Shown: in pieces, positions 3,222 through 28,282 of the stretch | Position numbering within the stretch: position 1 is the stretch's first letter | Layout: each line of letters begins with the position of its first letter | Position numbers and translations under genes: made by a program | The notes under the pieces: model-generated | Databases searched by the model: none | What the model saw: the letters and a program-made list of their open reading frames with translations, nothing else | What the model was told of the DNA's origin: nothing | Assembly: GCA_964016885.1 (NCBI GenBank) | Contig: OZ024747.1 | Location: 16,864,001-16,928,000 of the forward strand | Length of the DNA stretch: 64,000 bases | Direction of reading: 5' to 3' | Source of the DNA: Eledone cirrhosa | Taxonomy: Eukaryota

Positions 3222-3675
3222 GTAATAACATCGAAACTAGTCCAATATTCCTGTCTGGCCCTCTGGAGAATAGAGGAAATGTGTTTCCTTGAAACCTCGT
3301 ATGACTCTAAAACCCGGTCCGTCTGTGTGGTTACATACAGACTAGCTGACACTCACTGTAAAGTGTCTAGTGAAAAAAACTGAGTACATGTACAGATGTA
3401 TACATGTGTGTATTTATATGCATACTAATACTTCCGTATACATATGTAGATGTACACTTTAACTTAATTGTTTAAGCGTCAGTCATACAAAAGTGAGTTA
3501 GAAGCGAAACGAAATTTAATTTCGTTTCGTTATTTGTTTTTATCGTTTCCGCTGAACCGGTGCGTACAATGACTCACGTTCTATGCAAATTAGTCTACCC
3601 ACTACTAATTTTCATAGAAAAAGCATATAACGATATGTGCTTTTACAATTCTCCAGAGAAGCCGGAAGATGGGTA

Positions 3676-3720
3676 AATATTGCTGATGAGATGTAATAAC
3701 ATCGAAACTAGTCCAATATT
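3676..3720 (+). ncRNA. Type I hammerhead ribozyme (family D, complete copy 1)
   Basis: Stem I AAUAUUG/CAAUAUU; CUGAUGA; stem II GAUGU-AAUA-ACAUC; GAAA; palindromic stem III (A)CUAG(U); GUC cleavage triplet, cut predicted after 3713. Confidence 0.9.
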
Positions 3721-4145
3721 CCTGTCTGGCCCTCTGGAGAATAGAGGAAATGTGTTTCCTTGAAACCTCGTATGACTCTAAAACCCGGTCCGTCTGTGTG
3801 GTTACATACAGACTAGCTGACACTCACCGTAAAGTGTCTAGTGAAAAAACTGAGTACATGTACAGATGTATACATGTGTGTATTTATATGCATACTAATA
3901 CTTCCGTATACATATGTAGATGTACACTTTAACTTAATTGTTTAAGCGTCAGTCATACAAAAGTGAGTTAGAAGCGAAACGAAATTTAATTTCGTTTCGT
4001 TATTTGTTTTTATCGTTTCCGCTGAACCGGTGCGTACAATGACTCCCGTTCTATGCAAATTAGTCTACCCACTACTAATTTTCATAGAAAAAGCATATAA
4101 CGATATGTGCTTTTACAATTCTCCAGAGAATCCGGAAGATGGGTA

Positions 4146-4190
4146 AATATTGCTGATGAGATGTAATAACATCGAAACTAGTCCAATATT
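4146..4190 (+). ncRNA. Type I hammerhead ribozyme (family D, complete copy 2)
   Basis: Same sequence as 3676-3720. Confidence 0.9.
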
Positions 4191-4476
4191 CCTGTCTGGC
4201 CCTCTGGAGAATAGAGGAAATGTGTTTCCTTGAAACCTCGTATGACTCTAAAACCCGGTCCGTCTGTGTGGTTACATACAGACTAGCTGACACTCACTGT
4301 AAAGTGTCTAGTGAAAAAACTGAGTACATGTACAGATGTATACATGTGTGTATTTATATGCATACTAATACTTCCGTATACATATGTAGATGTACACTTT
4401 AACTTAATTGTTTAAGCGTCAGTCATACAAAAGTGAGTTAGAAGCGAAACGAAATTTAATTTCGTTTCGTTATTTG

Positions 4477-4512
<36 letters not shown>

Positions 4513-4700: not shown

Positions 4701-4742
<42 letters not shown>

Positions 4743-4989
4743 GTTGTTACACAACAGTTAGTTTACCATACCGAGAACAATTGTTTCACCGTAGCGGATC
4801 CTCAGCACGTAATGGGCATGGTTAAACGGAGCAGGAAGGAGAACCGTACGAACGCGCATGCGCAGAAACCCGTCACTTCACACAGGCAATACTAAAATGC
4901 GTGCGAGAGGTGTAAGGGAGATAACTGCGAAAGTCCGAAAAGTTTTTAGTTGATAAGAAAAAAATATTGATGTTGTTACAATAATTCAT

Positions 4990-5382
4990 TCAATCCGGGG
5001 CTTTGTAGTTATGCAATAGGTGTTTCGAGACGTGTGGACAACGTGTGAAAAACTCATTTCTCGTGTTTAGGCATTCACTATTGCATAATCTCTTTAGAAT
5101 ATTTATTCCTTCGTCAATACACAGTCCACACGACGGATGTCCCCTTGCGTATGGCTTGGACCTAGTAATGGCTTTCCATTGAATGGAGTAGTCTATACTT
5201 GAGACCTTGAGTGACCATACGTGGCTCGCGAGTTTCGTGGATGGACATCTGTCCAGGTACCTAAAGGTCGACTGATGGTTCAGGAAACTTTCCTTAAATC
5301 CGCCCTCCGACATGTCCACATAGGATTTGACCTCCTGTGGTTGGTTTGGTCGGTTGGAAGTGACTACAGCAGTGCAACACAC
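4990..5382 (-). pseudogene. PLE (Neptune-like) GIY-YIG endonuclease C-terminal part
   Basis: SYVDMSEGGFKESFLNHQSTF..TKLASHVWSLK..IQWKAI..CGLCIDE..LNTRNEFFTRCPH fits the Neptune EN pattern YIG..FK.R..NH..T.LS..W.LK..C.LC..E..LN.R.E..C.H. The forward copy reads YVGMSEGGFKER. Confidence 0.85.
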
Positions 5383-5733
5383 CAGCTGTAATTTATGAAG
5401 CTGTGGTCACTTCCAACCGACCAAACCAACCTCAGGCGGTCAAATCATATGTGGGCATGTCGGAGGGCGGATTTAAGGAACGTTTCCTGAACCATCAGTC
5501 GACCTTTAGGTACCCAGACAGACATTCACCATGACTACAAAGCTCTGGATTGAATAACATTTTGTAAGAACATCAATATTTTTTTCTTATCAACTAAAAA
5601 CTTTTAGGACTTTCGCAGTTATATCCCTTACAACTCTCGCACGCATTTTAGTATTGCCTGTTTGAAGTGACGGGTTTCTGCGCATGCGCGTTCGTACGGT
5701 TGTCCTTCCTGTTCCGTATAACCATGCCCATTA

Positions 5734-5771
5734 CGAGCTGAGGATCCGCTCAGGTGAAACAATTGTTCTCG
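5734..5771 (+). ncRNA. Type I hammerhead (family I; antisense twin at ~4771-4810)
   Basis: CGAG / CUGAGGA / short stem II CC(G)..(C)GG / GAAA / CAAUUG palindrome / UU / CUCG. Confidence 0.8.
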
Positions 5772-5868
5772 GTATGGTGAACTAACTGCTGTGTAACCAC
5801 TTCTACTAGCTCGTCCCATAGACTGAGTGCTCTACCACTACGGATATTACCTTCCAGTGTTCTACCAT

Positions 5869-11706: not shown

Positions 11707-12156
<450 letters not shown>

Positions 12157-15751: not shown

Positions 15752-18700
15752 GTGTGTGTGTGTGTGTGTGGGTGTGTGTGTGTGTGTGTATATATCTTAC
15801 GGTTGTAGAGTTGATTATAACTCAAACAATTCCACCTCTATTCCTTTACAAATATCAATATCGCATCCTCTCCGATCAGAGATTTTATTGCGTTACTTCT
15901 TTCTTCATACCTCAACCAATTTATTTCTGAGCGAGACATTTATTAGAAAACTTCTACTTATGATTATCTCGCCTAGTGGTAATATCTTTCTCCCGGCATA
16001 GAACACGAATCGATTAAATTAAGCTTAATAATATATGAAAAAGACCTGCATTTGTGTATTTATATGTATGAGCATGAAGTCAATCTGATATATGCGTTAT
16101 TATTTAAATCTATTGACCGGTCTGAATATATGATAACCTGCCTACGATTGACCAGGCAATCACCACCCCTGCCAATTTCATTTGACCAATATCTTGCTAC
16201 AAACTCTACCACCATATACACATTATTTACTTCCATCTCTATTGTACATAACCCGAACTATTTATTCTGAGTTGTTCCCACATATTGTATCCCAACAAAA
16301 GCCATACCAAGTCACTCGTTTCATTTCTTGTTTCTTCATTAATAATTTGACCACAATTCAATACATTCACTATCTCTGAAGAAGTATTAGTCTCTCACTT
16401 ATTTGCAATCCATCACTTCTTTCCTTGTGATAAATTTAATTATGATATCTTATTATTTGGGTTTCTCTGCTTTAGTATATATTGAGGCAATTAATTAGCA
16501 GATTTGGTAGAGTGTCGGGTACATTGTCTTGCGGCATTCACCCCGGTTTTGTGCACAATGACAATTTTAGATTTCATTCTATCTGGATCAATATTTAATC
16601 TATATAGCCAAGCTGGTTAAATTCTTCTCTCTAGGCTCCTGTCACACATACATTCTTTCCATATTTCCAGATAGAGATAGTGAGAGACTGTGTGCCACTC
16701 AAATTTTGACTGTCCTCATATGGTGTGCTGCGACAGGTTTAAATAGCACGACGGTGCCCTTATGATATCCTTGGGAGATCAAGGATCAATGAATGACAAA
16801 TGAATATATGTTGAGTAAATATGTCATTATTAGAATGCATTCGAAATGATGTTAATACTCATGAATCATATCTTCTTCAGACAAATGAGTTGGACATTTT
16901 TCATGAGTCAGGCACCACTCTATAGCTGGTAGATTTTTTTTACAAACCTTTTTATTTTAGGAGCAACTAATGTAATTAATAAGACGTCTTCAACGAAGTA
17001 ATAGCACTTGCTACTAATATCAAAGGAATCTCACTCAACCCATACGCTATCGCTTTGTTAAAAACAAGAAAAAACTTATCTGGATGGTCACGTTTAGATT
17101 AACTGTTTTATATTTGATTCCTCGGTCGGTAACAATCTTATCTAAAGAAGAAAAATGTAACATTAACTGTTTACATGTTATTACCCATGTTAGGAACATT
17201 TAATTTATAATTATATCAGGACTGACTAATAAATATAAACGTATTTGTAGATGAGTTTCTACAATGAATGAGAGAGAATGATTGATAGATTCTGACTCCA
17301 TAATTTGTTTACGAAAATATTTTCAATCACCCCTTTGGTTGACATAAAAACTGCCTAAGGCTAGTCAATGATAATATCAAAGATTAAAGCAAGACAGGAG
17401 TGTTTTTCCAAGTATATTTACATACGAATTCTTTAGAACATTTTCCCCTGCCATTGACTGGTTTCAAAGCAAATATTTGATTTCGTAAAGGACTTTAACC
17501 ATCGATAATCTTTGAAATCTATTTGATCTATATAATCGTTTATTTGAAATAATAAGTAAACATATATACACGATATTCATCTAAGTATACGAACATATTA
17601 AATATAGACTGACGCATTGGTAGTATTATATTTTTTATATCTTCAGAATTATTACGAAATAGATTTCTGCTCATCAAAAATAGATTAAATTCAACATGGT
17701 TTAATATATAGGGATTCAATGTCTGTTATTTATGTGTACTATGTAAGAATGTGGCAGCAGGGTGATACTGGATATAGAATGTACGGGTACAATTGCTCAT
17801 AAATTAAATCTCGTGCTCAAATACTAGTGTATATATGCCCGCCCACTCAATGTCAGCCTAGTAATTTATATTTACATAACGCAAATAAGTATAAAATATT
17901 TTGGGAAGCAGTGAATCATTGAGCTTTCTTAAATTACATCCCGAAATATAAAGGCGGTACTTAGATTATGTCTTTGTGAGGTGATTCATCGCTAAGTTAT
18001 ATTTTACAAGATATTCTAAAAAAAATAGAGATAGTCTTTATGTATGAACAATTCTTCGTACTTTTTATCATTTTTATATTCTCAGTCATAGTGAAAAAGT
18101 ATTGGTATCATAATACGATTTTCAATTTCATGGCCTTTTTATTTGTAGTAAGGATGAAGCGTGGGAAGTTTATAGAGTTAGATACATAGACAGACAGACA
18201 GGGTAGACAGGTATAAATATATATATATATATACAGAGACAGTCAACAGACAAACACAGAAGGAAAGAAAGAGAGAGAAGCAGACAGACACACAGAGAGA
18301 GGGAGAGAGAGAGAGAGTGAGAGAGGTGGGGCGGAGAGAGAAGGAACAGCACCAGTATTTGATATGGTATTAAAGGATTAAATGGAAAGCCGACCTTGGT
18401 AAATTTGAAATCAGAGTACAGCCAGCCGGAACAAACAATGCAAGACGCTTTTGCGTATTTGATTATTTGCTGCAAGTGTGTGTTATTTCTAAAGGCTAAA
18501 AAAATGTGCTTTTCTGAACCCAAATTGGCTCGGATTCTACAGGCCTAAGTCCAAAAATTATTGTTGATTTTGCATAGCCGAAAATGAACGGTAATCAAGT
18601 AAAGCTATCTCGTCAATTTCTACGTCCATAGGCTACTGTGTGCCATGTGCCCATCAATTTCCTCACCATAGCCTCTGATGTAGGATCGATTTGGTTAGAA

Positions 18701-19215: not shown

Positions 19216-19399
19216 GATGGGGAGAGCATTAATACTTCAATGGAAAATTCACTGTTGGTGACTTGACCCATTTGTTTTTAATTAATTATAGGAACGTGTG
19301 TGCATATATTACCAAGATGCACCATTTAGCCATAATAAAATAAATACGGAAACTCTATATTGGTTTTGAGTACGCACTTCTCTCAGCCGTCACCCACAT

Positions 19400-19461
<62 letters not shown>

Positions 19462-19602
19462 CGAAGGAAATGTGGTAAGGAAACAGATGGACCATAACGC
19501 ACCAAAGTACTCAATACTTAGTGTAGTAGAGTGGGTAATAGGAACGTGTAGGACCCCGACAGCTGAGCTCAAGCCGTTTCGATGGCTAATTCTGGACTAA
19601 AA

Positions 19603-19661
<59 letters not shown>

Positions 19662-19845
19662 ATGTGGGTGACGGCTGAGAGAAGTGCGTACTCAAAACCA
19701 ATATAGAGTTTCCGTATTTATTTTATTATGGCTAAATGGTGCATCTTGGTAATATATGCACACACGTTCCTATAATTAATTAAAAACAAATGGGTCAAGT
19801 CACCAACAGTGAATTTTCCATTGAAGTATTAATGCTCTCCCCATC
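19216..19845. repeat. Perfect 189-bp inverted duplication (19216-19404 / 19657-19845) around (TA)n-J-(TA)n
   Basis: Arms identical by eye. Followed by a 75-bp copy (19846-19920) of 20319-20393. Confidence 0.92.
19460..19608 (-). mobile_element. Family J PLE-like 3' fragment with tail
   Basis: Homologous to 15040-15125 and 48161-48312. Confidence 0.7.
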
Positions 19846-21568: not shown

Positions 21569-21780
<212 letters not shown>

Positions 21781-21793
21781 AATATATATATAT

Positions 21794-21856
<63 letters not shown>

Positions 21857-21861
<5 letters not shown>

Positions 21862-22424
21862 ATGCTTTGGGAGGGTCATGTTGCCAATAAGAAACACACG
21901 CACCAGATGCTTTCACTTCAATTTATTATAAATTAAATTTATAAATTTAGGAATTTATAAATTTCCGGTTGGTTGGTTGGTTGGGTCAACAACCAGACGA
22001 TTGTTCATATATTGTCAAAGTTCTTTCGTCACACATTATGTGACCTCTTCAGTGACTGGGGATTATTTTCTTTGTTTTTGTGCCTCTCCAAACTAAGCAC
22101 ACAACACACACAAAAACAAGATGGTGTAGGACAGACAAAGGAGAGGCACAAAAACAAAGAAAAGAATCCCCAGTCACTGAAGAGGTCACATAATGTGTGA
22201 CGAAAAAACTCTGACAATATATGAACAATCGTCTGGTTGTGGAACCAACCAATCAACCGGAAATTTATAAATTCCTAAATTTATAAATTTAATTTATAAT
22301 AAATTGAAGTGAAAGCAACTGGTGCGTGTGTTTCCTATTGGCAACATGACCCTCCCAAAGCATAACAATATCGGTTTCAACACACATTTTCAGATAAATA
22401 ATCTTGCTAAACAAATTCAGACAC

Positions 22425-22427
<3 letters not shown>
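21857..22427 (+). mobile_element. Family B palindromic HHR element (inverted arm, forward arm, ~57-nt tail)
   Basis: 21857-22089 is the inverse of 22140-22368. Tail TCGGTTTCAACAC..CAGACACGAA. (TA)n flanks. Confidence 0.9.
22173..22215 (+). ncRNA. Minimal type I hammerhead (family B; also 28007-28049, 44897-44939, 59043-59085 and antisense twins)
   Basis: GUCA / CUGAAGA / G-GUCACA..UGUGAC / GAAA / very short stem III / UGAC. Confidence 0.75.
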
Positions 22428-22515
<88 letters not shown>

Positions 22516-23468
22516 TTTATATGTGTTTGGAGTGTTCATTTGCAGATATTCTGCTCTAGAGAAATAGTTAATTTACTGATGGATTGACCCCATAAGTGTA
22601 GTTATATTTATTATATATTATATATATATATTGTTTCTCAAGTCTCGCGATGCCAACACTTAATCCATGTAAAATACAAGTGCTAGAAACGGACGGGTGA
22701 CGCCAAGCAGAGTGAACGCACGTATTTAACAATGAACTGATGAACGAGCAAATAGTCACCTTTTATGACCATTATAATTGTATAGACTCTAGTTCATATC
22801 TGTCTTGGTGACAACAATTCTGTTTGCGGTTGACCCACATAATTTAGGCCATTGTGAAGGAAAACGTTTCTATCAGTGAAAAGAATGTTGTTCTATGTCC
22901 CAGATAAGAAAAGAGCCTTCACGTGGTAATCTTTATTGTTGTAACGGTGGATGTATCACCTGACTAGACTAGATAGAAACACTTAACGCGTTGTATCCAG
23001 GCACGTACGATTACGCGGAATATGTAGCATAGACATGAACAGTTACAGTCATCTAGACGGCGACGTAGCCGTATGTTTCTTTGCTTCTGTTCTTTGAGAA
23101 CAAGAATCTAATAAATGTTTGCCTTGGAAACAATCTAATCACGTCACGTTTGTATCATGTTGCCAGGATCCGGCTCCAGCAGCCATGGATCTTACCTTCT
23201 AATCATGTTTGTTTGTTTGTGTGTATGTGTGTGTCAGTATATATATACGTGTAACTTTGTAAAAAGAAACATACTTAGAGTTCAATACATGTATATAACA
23301 AAATTGTATATGGAAAATGTATTCACCTGTATGCATGAGCTTTGCATAATCTGCACTTAAAGCTTAGTATTTATGAAGATATACAAGATTGGTTATCTTG
23401 GTCGATTCAAGGTAAAACACCTTACCGTAACAAATCAACGCGATGCTCAACTTCTGTATCTCTGTATC

Positions 23469-24002
23469 ACTATATCCATAAACAGAACTTTATATACAAT
23501 ATCTCAAGTATTCAGTAAACAGTATTTTATATTTAACATTTTCTTAAATATTCCTCTCAATCATTCGCTTTACATTCGTTGGAAATCTACGTAAAATAGA
23601 AAAGCAATTACCACCTGAAATACCATATATATTCAAAATAAGCTATATTAAAATTAGCATTTGCCTAAAAATAATTCTATGCCTTTAATTGTGCAAAATG
23701 TTCGTTTCTCGAAAGCTAATTTACATTATAAACATGGTGTATATCTACTTCTGATAACACACAAGGAGTACCTTTCATTTTCCATAGTCTGAACGACTGA
23801 GTGTTATAAATAGCACGTAAATAGCTGATTCCCTTACATACCTAACACCCAACATATCATCTTAAAGATATAAGGAAATAATAATTCCATAGACACATTA
23901 TATACATTTTTAAAGGATCGTCTGTGACACACATATACGAGTGTATACATACAATGAATGAATATATATAGCCAGCATGGAAAACACTAAGATATTTTAT
24001 TG

Positions 24003-24036
<34 letters not shown>

Positions 24037-24063
24037 TATTATTATATATATTATATTTTATAT

Positions 24064-24111
<48 letters not shown>

Positions 24112-24672
24112 AATAATAATAATAATAATTTTATATATATATATATCAATAAAATATCTTAGTTTTTTCCATTCATATTAATTCATTGTATGTATACACT
24201 CGTATATGTGTGTCACAGACCATCCTGTAAAATGTATATAATGTGTCTATGGAATTATTATTTCCTTATATCTTTAATATGATGTGATGGGTGTTAGGTA
24301 TGTAAGGGAATCAGCTATTTACGTGGCTATTTATAACACTCAGTCGTTCAGACTATGGGAAAATGAAAGGTACTCCTTGTGTGTTATCAGAAGTAGATAT
24401 ACACAAATGTTTATAATGTAAATTACCTTTCGAGAAACGAACATTCTGCACCATTAAAGGCATAGAATTTTTTTTAGGCAATGCTAATTTTAATATAGGT
24501 TATTTTGAATATATATGGTATTTCAGGTGGTAATTGCGTTTCCATGTTTCGTAGTTTTCCAACGAATGTAAAGCGAATGATTGAGAGGAATATTTAAGAA
24601 AATGTTAAATATAAAATACTGTTTACTGAATACTTGAGATATTGTATATAAAGTTCTGTTTCTGGATATAGT
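23469..24672. repeat. ~550-bp-arm imperfect palindrome centred on an AT-rich/(TA)n core
   Basis: 23469-~24050 is the inverse of ~24110-24672, with scattered substitutions and indels. Confidence 0.9.
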
Positions 24673-24685
24673 ATATATATATACA

Positions 24686-26056: not shown

Positions 26057-26060
<4 letters not shown>

Positions 26061-27049
26061 AAGTATAAGAATCAAAGAACTGTTCAAAACATTACAGTGC
26101 TTACAGCTGTTTCCTCCAAACCGAGGTTTGGATTCTTCGGAGCAATTTATTAATGATTGGACAGTTATATGACCTCCTTTTCAGCCAAGAGACATACCGA
26201 TACATATGCAAATATTGTGGGTCAACATGCATTACAGCATTTAGAGTGGCAGTACACACTTCGAGATTACATTCATAATAAAAGGTACAATCAATAATCA
26301 AAAATACAGGTTAAAGTACAACATGAAGATAAGCGGTTATATAGTGCAAATGTTATATGTGTGGCAAGCACGTGCGTCTTGTTTATATAGTGTGGCAGAG
26401 AGATATATGTGTGGTAGGAGCACTTAGGTGGGTAAAGAAGAGTGTTAGGTTGGTTGATCTGGTGGGAAATTTTTTATATGATTGTTATAGTCTGTGTGTG
26501 GAGAAAAGATATAAGCATTAAAACTATTTTTAATGCTTAAACATATTTTTGATGCTTATATCTTTTCTCCACACACAGACTATAACATTTGCACTATATA
26601 ACCGCTTATCTTCATGTTGTACTTTAACCTGTATTTTTGATTTTTGATTGTACCTTTTATTATGAATGTAATCTCGAAGTGTGTACTGCCACTCTAAATG
26701 CTGTGATGAATGTTGACCCACAATATTTGGATATGTATCAGTATGTCTCTTGGCTGAAAAGAAGGTCATATAACTGTCCAATCATTAATAAATTGCTCCG
26801 AAGAATCCAAACCTCGGTTTGGAGGAAACGGCTGTAAGCACTGTAATGTTTTGAACAGTTCTTTGATTCTTATACTTCATATAACTGCTCTGTAAATCAT
26901 CTGATGTTCTTACATTGAGCTACTTAACTTACTGGTAATAAGCTAGTAATACATTACTGCCTACCACTATTTAGGGTTTGTATAAAAAATACATATAACT
27001 GCTAAATGTTTTTGTGTTTTCATAACCATAAATAGTACAATTAATACTA
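26057..27049 (+). mobile_element. Family K palindromic PLE pLTR element (inverted 26057-26530, forward 26530-26881, tail 26882-27049)
   Basis: Arms are inverse. Tail is homologous to 56055-56212 of the Neptune element. (TA)n flanks. Confidence 0.88.
26794..26840 (+). ncRNA. Type I hammerhead with CCGAAGA core (family K; twin at 26098-26144, minus strand)
   Basis: UGCU / CCGAAGA / UCCAAACC-UC-GGUUUGGA / GAAA / CRGCUG / UA / AGCA. Confidence 0.72.
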
Positions 27050-27225: not shown

Positions 27226-27559
27226 CATATATATTTATATATATGGCGGCTGCCAACTCGTTTTCGAGTACGGCCACTACTTTATATCCATGTAGGAGAA
27301 CCCCCACCAATGCGCTGAACGAGTGTGACTTTTTAGTCCAGCCAGCGACTTGAAAACTCTGGTACAAACACTACACTTGTGACAATTATTGACACATAGT
27401 GCTGGGCCCATGGTACCATGTGACGACATATGCAGAGAGATCTCCAGATATAAAGCAATGCCTGTGCCGTGAAGCTTTTATAGTGAGCAAAGGCACTGCA
27501 CAAAGCCAGTCCCACTCTCTTAACCAAGATGATATTTACCAAATATATATATATATATA

Positions 27560-28269
27560 TCGTTATACTTTGGGAGGGTCATGTTGCCAATAAGAAACAC
27601 ACGCACCACATGCTTTCAATTCAATTTATTTACCAAATATATATATATTGTTATACTTTGGGAGGGTCATGTTGCCAATAAGAAACACACGCACCAGTAT
27701 GCTTTCACTTCAATTTATTATAATAAATTTACAAATTTAGGAATTTATAATTTTTACGGTTGGTTGGTTGCTTCCACAACCAGATGGTTGTTTATATATT
27801 GTCAAAGTTCTTTCGTCACACATTCTGGGACTTCTTCAGTGACTGTGGATTCTTTTCTTTGTTTTTGTGCCTCTCCTTTGTTCTGCCCTACGCCATCTTG
27901 TTTCTGTGTGTCACACAGAAACATGTATATATGGTGTGACACACAGAAACAAGATGGCGTAGGACAGAACAAAGGAGAGGCACAAAAACAAAGAAAAGAA
28001 TCCCCAGTCACTGAAGAGGTCACATAATGTGTCACGAAAGAACTTTGACAATATATAAACAACCATCTGGTTGTGGAACCAACCAACCAACCGGAAATTT
28101 ATGAATTCCTAAATTTATACATTTATAAATTTATTATAATAAATTGAAGTTAAACGTATGTGGTGCGTGTGTTTCTTATTGACAACATGACCCTCCCAAA
28201 GCATAACAATATCGGTTTCAACACACGTTTTCAGATAAAGAATCTTGCTAAACAAATTCAGAAACGAAA
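27560..28269 (+). mobile_element. Family B palindromic element with an extra short inverted start (27560-27630)
   Basis: Same inversion start and tail as 21857-22427. Confidence 0.88.
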
Positions 28270-28282
28270 TATATATCTATAT

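Follow-up and report, generated by a model that had tools for sequence, protein, structure and literature searches.

Insertions of Penelope-like elements (PLEs) in the genome of Eledone cirrhosa carry two fixed 3′ ends, a tail end (site T) and an internal site (site I) situated 40-170 nt upstream of it, and these ends are coupled: in nearly all head-to-head pairs of arms whose outer ends could be typed, one arm ends at T and the other at I. Probably, both 3′-OH ends of a cut TA array prime on one element RNA at two internal sites, whereupon the cDNAs are joined by microhomology-mediated repair. The element type and the layout of the insertions are known; the process that we infer, with good support, is a variant of target-primed reverse transcription.

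PLE copies in the window

The window, i.e. the whole stretch of 64,000 nucleotides that was analysed, contains a family B copy at 21854-22426 which, judged by its sequence, is composed of two 5′-truncated, head-to-head 3′-UTR arms of a Neptune-type PLE. The features of this copy, followed by those of the other family copies, are listed below with the strand in brackets where one was recorded (a point stands for no single strand).

21597-21857 (.): left (TA)n array, the target microsatellite
21854-22089 (-): family B inverted arm, 3′-UTR segment -284 to -55 of the Neptune-type PLE; its outer end is the fixed internal site I, the terminal AATAT merging into the TA run
22089-22371 (+): family B forward arm, -338 to -55
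22173-22215 (+): type I hammerhead-like motif predicted by pattern (CUGAAGA core at 22177, stem II, GAAA at 22202)
22372-22426 (+): family B tail, 55 nt, site I to site T
22374-22412 (+): predicted bulged RNA stem, just 3′ of site I
22427-22512 (.): right (TA)n array
267-375: family C (F43) solo arm, I-ended
4738-5867 (.): family I head-to-head insertion, Hydra-type PLE
4990-5406 (-): GIY-YIG C-terminus in the family I copy, open frame
26057-27047 (.): family K (F42) head-to-head insertion, tail about 160 nt, bulged stem GCTC/GAGC
27557-27630: local 88-bp duplicate of the I end of the 27645-28267 copy
27645-28267 (.): second head-to-head B insertion, I left, T right
28277-28975 (.): family C (F43) head-to-head insertion, left-side tail
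29048-29280 (.): family L (F2) head-to-head insertion, I left, T right
29336-29423 (-): family F (F3) solo arm, ending at I
44741-45092 (+): solo B arm, ending at site I
46456-47920 (.): family M (F8), a near-symmetric T/I pair followed by three tandem copies, in which the T arm comprises just the terminal 32 nt of the tail
50338-50744 (.): family A pair, B-related and Neptune-type, with a short inverted arm (62 nt)
about 58380-58483: additional family F copy
58989-59290 (+): B arm, ending at site T

Alignment of the two B arms at 21854-22371 over 232 bases gives 225 identities, and the arms share 1 nt at the inner junction (position 22089). The arrangement of (TA)n, inverted arm, forward arm, tail and (TA)n that had been described for the window is present in eight of its named families, with tail lengths near the earlier values (64 nt in family I, 55 in B, about 160 in K, 77 in C, 86 in L, 89 in M, about 91 in F and about 48 in A). 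The initial annotation considered these families unrelated and the outer end of the inverted arm to be the same in independent copies. Many families do share the layout, but A has its 3′ end in common with B (79-83% over 70 nt) and F has a ribozyme-like segment in common with I, so that not all of them are unrelated. Likewise, the fixed site is real, but the end at 27560 is not independent, since it arose by the 88-bp local duplication of the end at 27648, and the ends at 45090, 29342 and 375 belong to solo arms. Two tandem arrays were also noted, one with a 99% identical 470-bp unit (3222-4483) and one with a 339-bp unit, which is the family M T/I unit plus its TA flank repeated (46736-48064).

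Neptune-type and Hydra-type elements

Family B runs upstream into a single ORF that encodes an RT and, C-terminally, a GIY-YIG endonuclease (translations L208, L192 and L217); Pfam RVT_1 matches it with E=0.00098, under the curated cut-off, and GIY-YIG is recognised by motif only. The linker reads C-x4-C-x2-C, two Cys are located between the GIY-like and YIG motifs, and two His follow downstream. With a CX2-5CxxC linker and CCHH, family B can be classed as a putative Neptune-type PLE by motifs, not by tree. The N-terminal part of the Neptune-type ORF displays an asparagine/threonine-rich low-complexity stretch (L231:2505-6075, L239, L246); N-rich inserts occur in rotifer PLEs at other positions, as described in part of PMC3846280. 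A reading of B as a 500-nt non-autonomous element was rejected, since B turned out to form the 3′ end of a longer unit (about 4.07 kb).

The ORF of family I carries RWR, a CxCX5C linker, CxxC and CxH, and no Cys inside GIY-YIG; the DKT position is HKT in the single copy that covers it (L180). Section 11 of PMC8557442 gives as marks of Hydra an RWK-like motif, DKT, a CxCX5C linker and CxxC/CxH near the C-terminus, without CCHH. Compared with the clades defined there, family I has the Hydra motifs, and B the Neptune linker and CCHH. Together with (TA)n insertion and a canonical hammerhead pattern, this suggests that family I is a Hydra-type PLE, again by motifs and not by tree. Pfam and PDB searches with the Hydra-type ORF did not recognise it. 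Fragments of a divergent second Hydra-like PLE, with an endonuclease 34% identical to that of family I, lie at 55141-56092 (-) of the window, and L182 and L183 are near-identical segments about 256 kb apart on the same chromosome, in which a family I copy stands beside a transposase-like ORF.

The assignment of the elements to PLEs in the initial annotation is thus borne out by RT/GIY-YIG ORFs with Neptune and Hydra motifs. These ORFs also fix the polarity: the arms point 3′-outward, and their truncated 5′ ends meet in the middle. In the window, the GIY-YIG frame at 4990-5406 (minus strand) shows this orientation for both family I arms. Family B moreover displays a pLTR-type partial tandem and an inverted 5′-truncated copy with a one-sided tail. 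A hammerhead pattern is found in 9 of 21 families including B, where it is situated at -247 (activity predicted only). A scan with Rfam gave no hammerhead among the best 150 of 293 rows, which contained miRNA-like matches on repeats and hairpins, all below the gathering score.

Two fixed 3′ ends throughout the genome

A search of the 3.0-Gb genome with the forward B arm gave 2453 candidates, of which 40 were scored; in these, the inverted arms share one reference end position, as do some solo arms. The genome sample comprised the window and 118 stretches of 10 kb, most of them evenly spaced and 12 adjoining the window (1.244 Mb in total). It contained 142 inverted repeats with TA at one end; 17 of the 142 with TA at both ends were not followed. 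From 106 seeds, all asymmetric repeats and chosen after the satellite L063 had been dropped, 45 clusters were obtained and 21 families kept.

In about 20 families the 3′ ends that abut TA are bimodal, located either at the tail end T or at the internal site I. Of 100 TA-abutting non-tail 3′ ends in six families, 80 lie within 3 nt of one family-specific site I; in family B, 18 of 21 lie exactly at -55. Because a TA-like stretch inside the element had truncated the F3 reference, the T value used for F3 in the end-typing counts is too short. Of the 124 head-to-head pairs, 81 touch TA at both outer ends, 33 at one and 10 at neither. Additionally, 18 solo arms end at I next to TA, and in most solo arms inspected no short partner arm was found beside them. 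Altogether, PLE arms account for about 6.6% of the sample, in which each Mb holds about 100 head-to-head pairs. The end positions confirm the fixed inversion point as real and genome-wide: far from being scattered, which had been named as the outcome that would speak against it, the 3′ ends sit at two fixed sites. A search of short-read contigs for empty sites found none.

A predicted bulged RNA stem behind the presumed start sites

Common to the tails is a structure that begins no more than about 8 nt after I and in which a 2-nt 3′ bulge separates a 4-bp stem (RYTY/RARY) from a second stem. In the window copy, the predicted stem at 22374-22412 consists of P1 GTTT/AAAC, the bulge CT and P2 CAA/TTG, and differs from the minimum-energy fold of this copy; minimum-energy folding in B does not single out the stem (z -0.63). 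A structure search detected it in 14 of 21 families, one of them spurious, compared with 4.8 expected by shuffle, and in a test anchored on P1, P2 was paired 3/3 in 11 of 16 families. Among 12 families, picked from the 21 for having the stem so that the test is partly circular, 86.9% of cells pair versus 71.9% when shuffled (slid controls 21-52%), and double changes amount to 21 versus 8.5 (0/500), with 3 of the 12 rows misplaced in the MAFFT alignment. Within B-like tails, CAA/TTG is dominant (44 with a CT bulge); the compensatory change to CGA/TCG was counted 5 times. The same P2 variant CGA/TCG is found in the family A subfamily, the copy at 50338-50744 reading TGA/TCG.

About 5-10 nt after T there is a second stem, seen in one run-on copy each of F0, F22 and F43 and in copies of F26; family I has a looser long-loop stem at this place, and B a looser hairpin that fits the pattern loosely. 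The stem is absent in F7, F9, F10, F28 and F34. The published Hydra consensus sequences accompanying PMC8557442, in the portion compared by eye, display it completely in two of six (coral and sea cucumber), with one mismatch in a third and weakly in another, while two have no tail; the text of that paper, in its available part, does not mention the stem, yet it is visible in the consensus file. Taken together, the sequences point to a covarying bulged stem after I in most families and after T in several.

F10, F28 and F34 (e.g. L117:9200-9739) have tails of about 40 nt that share another motif, CAATGCTTCAAG, and lack the bulged stem. These families possibly form another PLE clade; no partner ORF was found for them.

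Coupling of the ends and position of site T

All 124 head-to-head pairs in the 1.244-Mb sample join arms of the same family. At least one end was untyped in 37; the 87 typed pairs comprise 83 T/I, 3 I/I and 1 T/T. Inspection of the exceptions revealed that the T/T pair and one I/I pair are larger inverted duplications including flanks, and that in another I/I pair the T arm is cut by another insert, which leaves one true I/I pair. As counted, the I/I pairs in L108 and L150 speak against strict T/I coupling. After removal of local duplicates, 80 T/I pairs remained. Among 15 long B elements (>4 kb) that contain tandem junctions, 10 could be resolved at the far end: 8 are T/I, 1 is T/T and 1 is I/I.

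A few copies run on past T. With the B run-on sequence as query, 786 candidates were obtained and 40 of them scored, and 30 loci with sequence beyond T were fetched; in all 30, which were selected by that query, an upstream partial copy ends exactly at T and is followed by the 5′ UTR, with the ATG of the unit at +45. The upstream laps have scattered 5′ ends (-45 to -1515), which argues for tandem or circular templates. In family B, an identical AATATCG stands directly after both I and T. Since T is a tail-to-head junction followed by the element's own 5′ UTR, it is likely internal and not the RNA 3′ end; the second stem behind T in four other families points the same way. Both start sites are thus likely internal, as are the two that the Anolis element PAc uses in vitro (part of PMC11167929). 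The initial annotation had proposed priming at the RNA 3′ end and at a defined internal site, with subsequent joining of the two cDNAs. The fixed internal site and the two cDNAs fit the data, but the start at the RNA 3′ end is not supported.

Common origin of the two arms

The divergence between the arms of a pair has a median of 3.2%, compared with 11.0% between copies, and is the lower value in 62 of 67 pairs; it is lower than the divergence from the nearest other copy in only 21 of 67. The selected B loci give 2.1% between arms versus 3.4% between copies (22 of 28 pairs) and 0.8% to the nearest copy, the arms being closer to each other than to that copy in 2 of 28. In family I, 4.5% compares with 6.2% (8 of 8 pairs). 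At subfamily-diagnostic sites the arms agree in 429 of 443 cases (255.5 expected), and 49 of 52 pairs agree at ≥80% of these sites. Rare changes at 17,748 conserved sites in 67 pairs number 507, of which 471 are confined to one arm and 36 found in both, where an arithmetic estimate of same-site coincidences predicts about 3. The shared changes bear no A-to-G editing signature (6/36 vs 38/471, p=0.11). The arms therefore appear mostly to share a source copy. The comparison of arm-to-arm with copy-to-copy divergence, which had been suggested as a check, thus reveals alike arms and a common template lineage and is compatible both with one molecule and with two RNAs of the same source.

Twin priming might instead proceed on two RNAs, or the two templates might be units of one tandem or circular transcript; an asymmetric dimer would use T on one and I on the other. 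Such a process would make strand displacement unnecessary. Multi-unit templates do exist, as seen from the elements longer than 4 kb and the upstream partial laps (-45 to -1515), and 2 of the 10 resolved long elements break the T/I rule. Moreover, an arm often resembles sibling copies at least as closely as its partner arm, which is compatible with a pair of RNAs that stem from the same source copy or from a co-active subfamily. However, no cross-family pair occurs among 124 although many families have the stem in common, 49 of 52 pairs agree at ≥80% of diagnostic sites, the 36 shared rare changes exceed the roughly 3 expected, and the near-strict T/I coupling would demand an additional rule. 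Two templates are therefore regarded as unlikely.

A single template switch of the RT, onto antisense RNA or displaced DNA, or two separate head-to-head insertions homogenised by gene conversion, is very improbable. Many inserts are stacked per TA array in this genome, multi-piece junctions occur, and the 36 shared rare changes could be due to conversion. However, no TA is found between the arms, nor any cross-family pair; 93% of the rare changes are one-armed while 97% of the diagnostic sites agree, which argues for a common template and renders conversion too rare to explain the agreement.

Arm extents and inner junctions

The arms of a pair reach 5′ independently of each other. Of the 80 T/I pairs, 46 are symmetric within 15 nt; where the extents differ by more than that, it is the I arm that extends further 5′ in 25 pairs and the T arm in 9 (p=0.009). 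In 11 pairs, the T arm stops inside the tail or no more than 10 nt past I. Extreme extents in selected long copies (T/I) are -90/-1840, -2916/-128 and -63/-1306.

These counts bear on fold-back or self-priming, in which one cDNA (or an antisense RNA, as proposed in part of PMC3846280) folds back and is copied, the endonuclease trimming at I. The near-symmetry of 46 of the 80 pairs and the likeness of the arms would suit this published hypothesis, and duplications with flanks by fold-back do occur in this genome. However, in 25 of the 80 pairs the tail-less arm has sequence that is missing in the tail arm, while the tail itself is present only in the tail arm, so that neither arm can have been copied from the other. 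In the 11 pairs with the shortest T arms, the arms overlap barely or not at all, and T arms consisting of tail only cannot be built by fold-back. Furthermore, the 18 solo arms end at I beside TA, and a PLE RT uses both start sites in vitro (part of PMC11167929). For the asymmetric pairs the self-priming model as given in that part of PMC3846280 is thus contradicted, and as a general explanation it is at least as improbable as template switching. A MITE or fold-back DNA transposon with terminal inverted repeats and TA target duplication, which would suit inverted repeats flanked by TA, can be virtually dismissed, since instead of symmetric, fixed-length TIRs the copies have asymmetric ends, centres that vary over kilobases, hammerhead-like motifs and arms that run into RT/GIY-YIG ORFs.

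The inner junctions, which had been described as simply variable, are symmetric within 15 nt in the 46 pairs and cluster at family-specific positions: at about -312 in B, -127 to -140 in F0 (blurred, as the F0 reference diverges at -127), -133 in F5, -97 in F3 and -263 in F8. These clusters may represent RNA 5′ ends or strong stops. The symmetric junctions of B near -305 to -320 coincide with a AAGATGGCG motif (window 27645-28267, L002, L008, L039), which we take to be a YY1-type initiator, and this cluster could mark the transcript start. The inner junctions of F3 and F5 are concentrated 2-8 nt 5′ of the CUGANGA core of the hammerhead (L130:6587-6746, L129:5692-5893). The main 5′-end clusters lie just 5′ of the core in F3 and F5 and about 65 nt upstream of it in B and F8; no clear pile-up at the predicted hammerhead cut was seen in the cluster positions.

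Overlap at the junctions has a mean of 3.2 nt in 43 real joins and 2.1 nt in 84 simulated blunt joins (p=8e-5). Among 62 real joins, 26 have overlaps of ≥3 nt, compared with 23 among 99 simulated ones, a modest excess over a noisy null; inserts of ≥5 nt are present in 13 of 62 and 8 of 99, respectively. Several inserts repeat neighbouring sequence, and complex multi-piece junctions are present in L252, L257 and L261. Inserts that copy nearby sequence are typical of polymerase theta joining, and the joining enzyme is thus presumed to be polymerase theta.

Proposed mechanism

In the mechanism that is considered probable, i.e. priming of both DNA ends on one RNA, the endonuclease would cut both strands of the TA array. 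A protein dimer might be seated on two RNA stems separated by roughly the length of the tail, with each subunit starting a few nucleotides 5′ of its own stem, possibly aided by a 2-8 nt UA-like match to the target. One cDNA would start from I and the other from T on a single RNA. The T-primed enzyme would presumably trail and displace the I-primed cDNA, or stall; the longer I arms and the T arms stopping in the tail fit such a trailing enzyme. If both cDNAs stopped at one family-specific point, a near-perfect palindrome would arise, and loss or extreme shortness of the second cDNA would leave a solo arm. The cDNA ends would likely be joined by microhomology. The earlier description of these copies as a direct readout of integration overstated the case: the use of one or of two RNA molecules and the joining enzyme are reached by inference.

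A more specific version has about an even chance of being right. It holds that in Neptune/Hydra-type PLEs twin priming is programmed: the two stems at the tail-to-head junction would seat an RT dimer on the same RNA, the leading cDNA would be displaced, and host end joining would complete the insertion without a conventional second-strand step. The tail would then serve as a spacer, and the stem would be conserved across phyla, in the sister group of telomerase, as an element that positions the RT.

Relation to known systems

The layout has been published (Arkhipova 2013, Craig 2021), as have two start sites in vitro (Frangieh 2024). Endonuclease-positive PLE insertion units with an inverted 5′-truncated pLTR and a one-sided tail of 30-40 bp are described in parts of PMC3846280 and PMC8557442, and the families reported here resemble them in head-to-head arms, one-sided tail, partial tandems and hammerhead motif. 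(TA)n targeting is likewise common to them and to the Hydra, Naiad and Neptune clades of PMC8557442, as described in part of its text. In the published account, as far as those portions of it go, self-priming on an antisense template and endonuclease resolution explain the layout; in contrast, tails here measure 40-170 nt, and T/I coupling, independent extents and a shared template have been counted.

The Poseidon element PAc of Anolis belongs to another clade. According to part of PMC11167929, its purified protein cuts and extends both strands in vitro, is predicted to form a dimer, and acts on an AT-rich target from two internal RT start sites bracketing the tail, with a stem-loop at the start site and no strand preference seen for either site. 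That part of the work assigns no site to either DNA end and offers no explanation of inverted copies. The start-site structure of PAc is given there as an AC-rich stem-loop; the families here have a bulged stem. Animal non-LTR retrozymes, i.e. short hammerhead-bearing units tied to PLE pLTRs, are presented in part of bioRxiv 10.64898/2026.07.22.740005 as non-autonomous PLE derivatives, and several short families here may by analogy be retrozyme-like derivatives of this kind; a term search of the main text of that preprint, as far as available, gave 0 occurrences of tail, hairpin, stem, priming and initiation. In the portions of the PLE literature that were covered, no account of T/I coupling, of twin priming in PLEs or of the bulged stem was found.

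In LINE-1 twin priming, both target ends prime on one RNA, and the resulting inversion is joined by microhomology; the internal site at which the second primer anneals varies, and there is no overlap between the pieces. The PLE process works in a similar manner and shares microhomology at the junctions, here in modest excess over simulation, yet it is not that process: the second site is fixed, and the arms overlap fully in most pairs, for which displacement synthesis would be needed.

The origin of the inverted ends and the one-sided tail of PLEs is called an open question in parts of PMC8557442 and PMC11167929. The present counts argue against the self-priming proposal (part of PMC3846280), link the two start sites seen in vitro with the two ends that each insertion has in the genome, and point to a small RNA stem that could be mutated in an existing assay. 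If true, the programmed version would be target-primed reverse transcription with programmed rather than accidental twin priming in the RT group closest to telomerase. The reading would also explain about 100 asymmetric palindromes per Mb in this genome, which might otherwise be misfiled as MITEs.

Other repeats

Inverted duplications of larger size, which extend into flanking DNA and microsatellites and are in some cases 99-100% identical, were observed at 23455-24685, 59292-60255, 19216-19845 and 11839-12156 of the window, and further ones with flanks at L141:2785-3150 and L129:267-612. They could be either secondary fold-back events or assembly artefacts. Between TA arrays at 29505-32610 of the window lies a LINE with broken frames for an AP endonuclease (Pfam Exo_endo_phos_2) and an RT (RVT_1, E=4e-29). 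LINE 3′ ends, presumably RTE-like, are situated beside TA-rich arrays at 32693-33122 and 48306-48759, where they stand without the inverted-arm layout.
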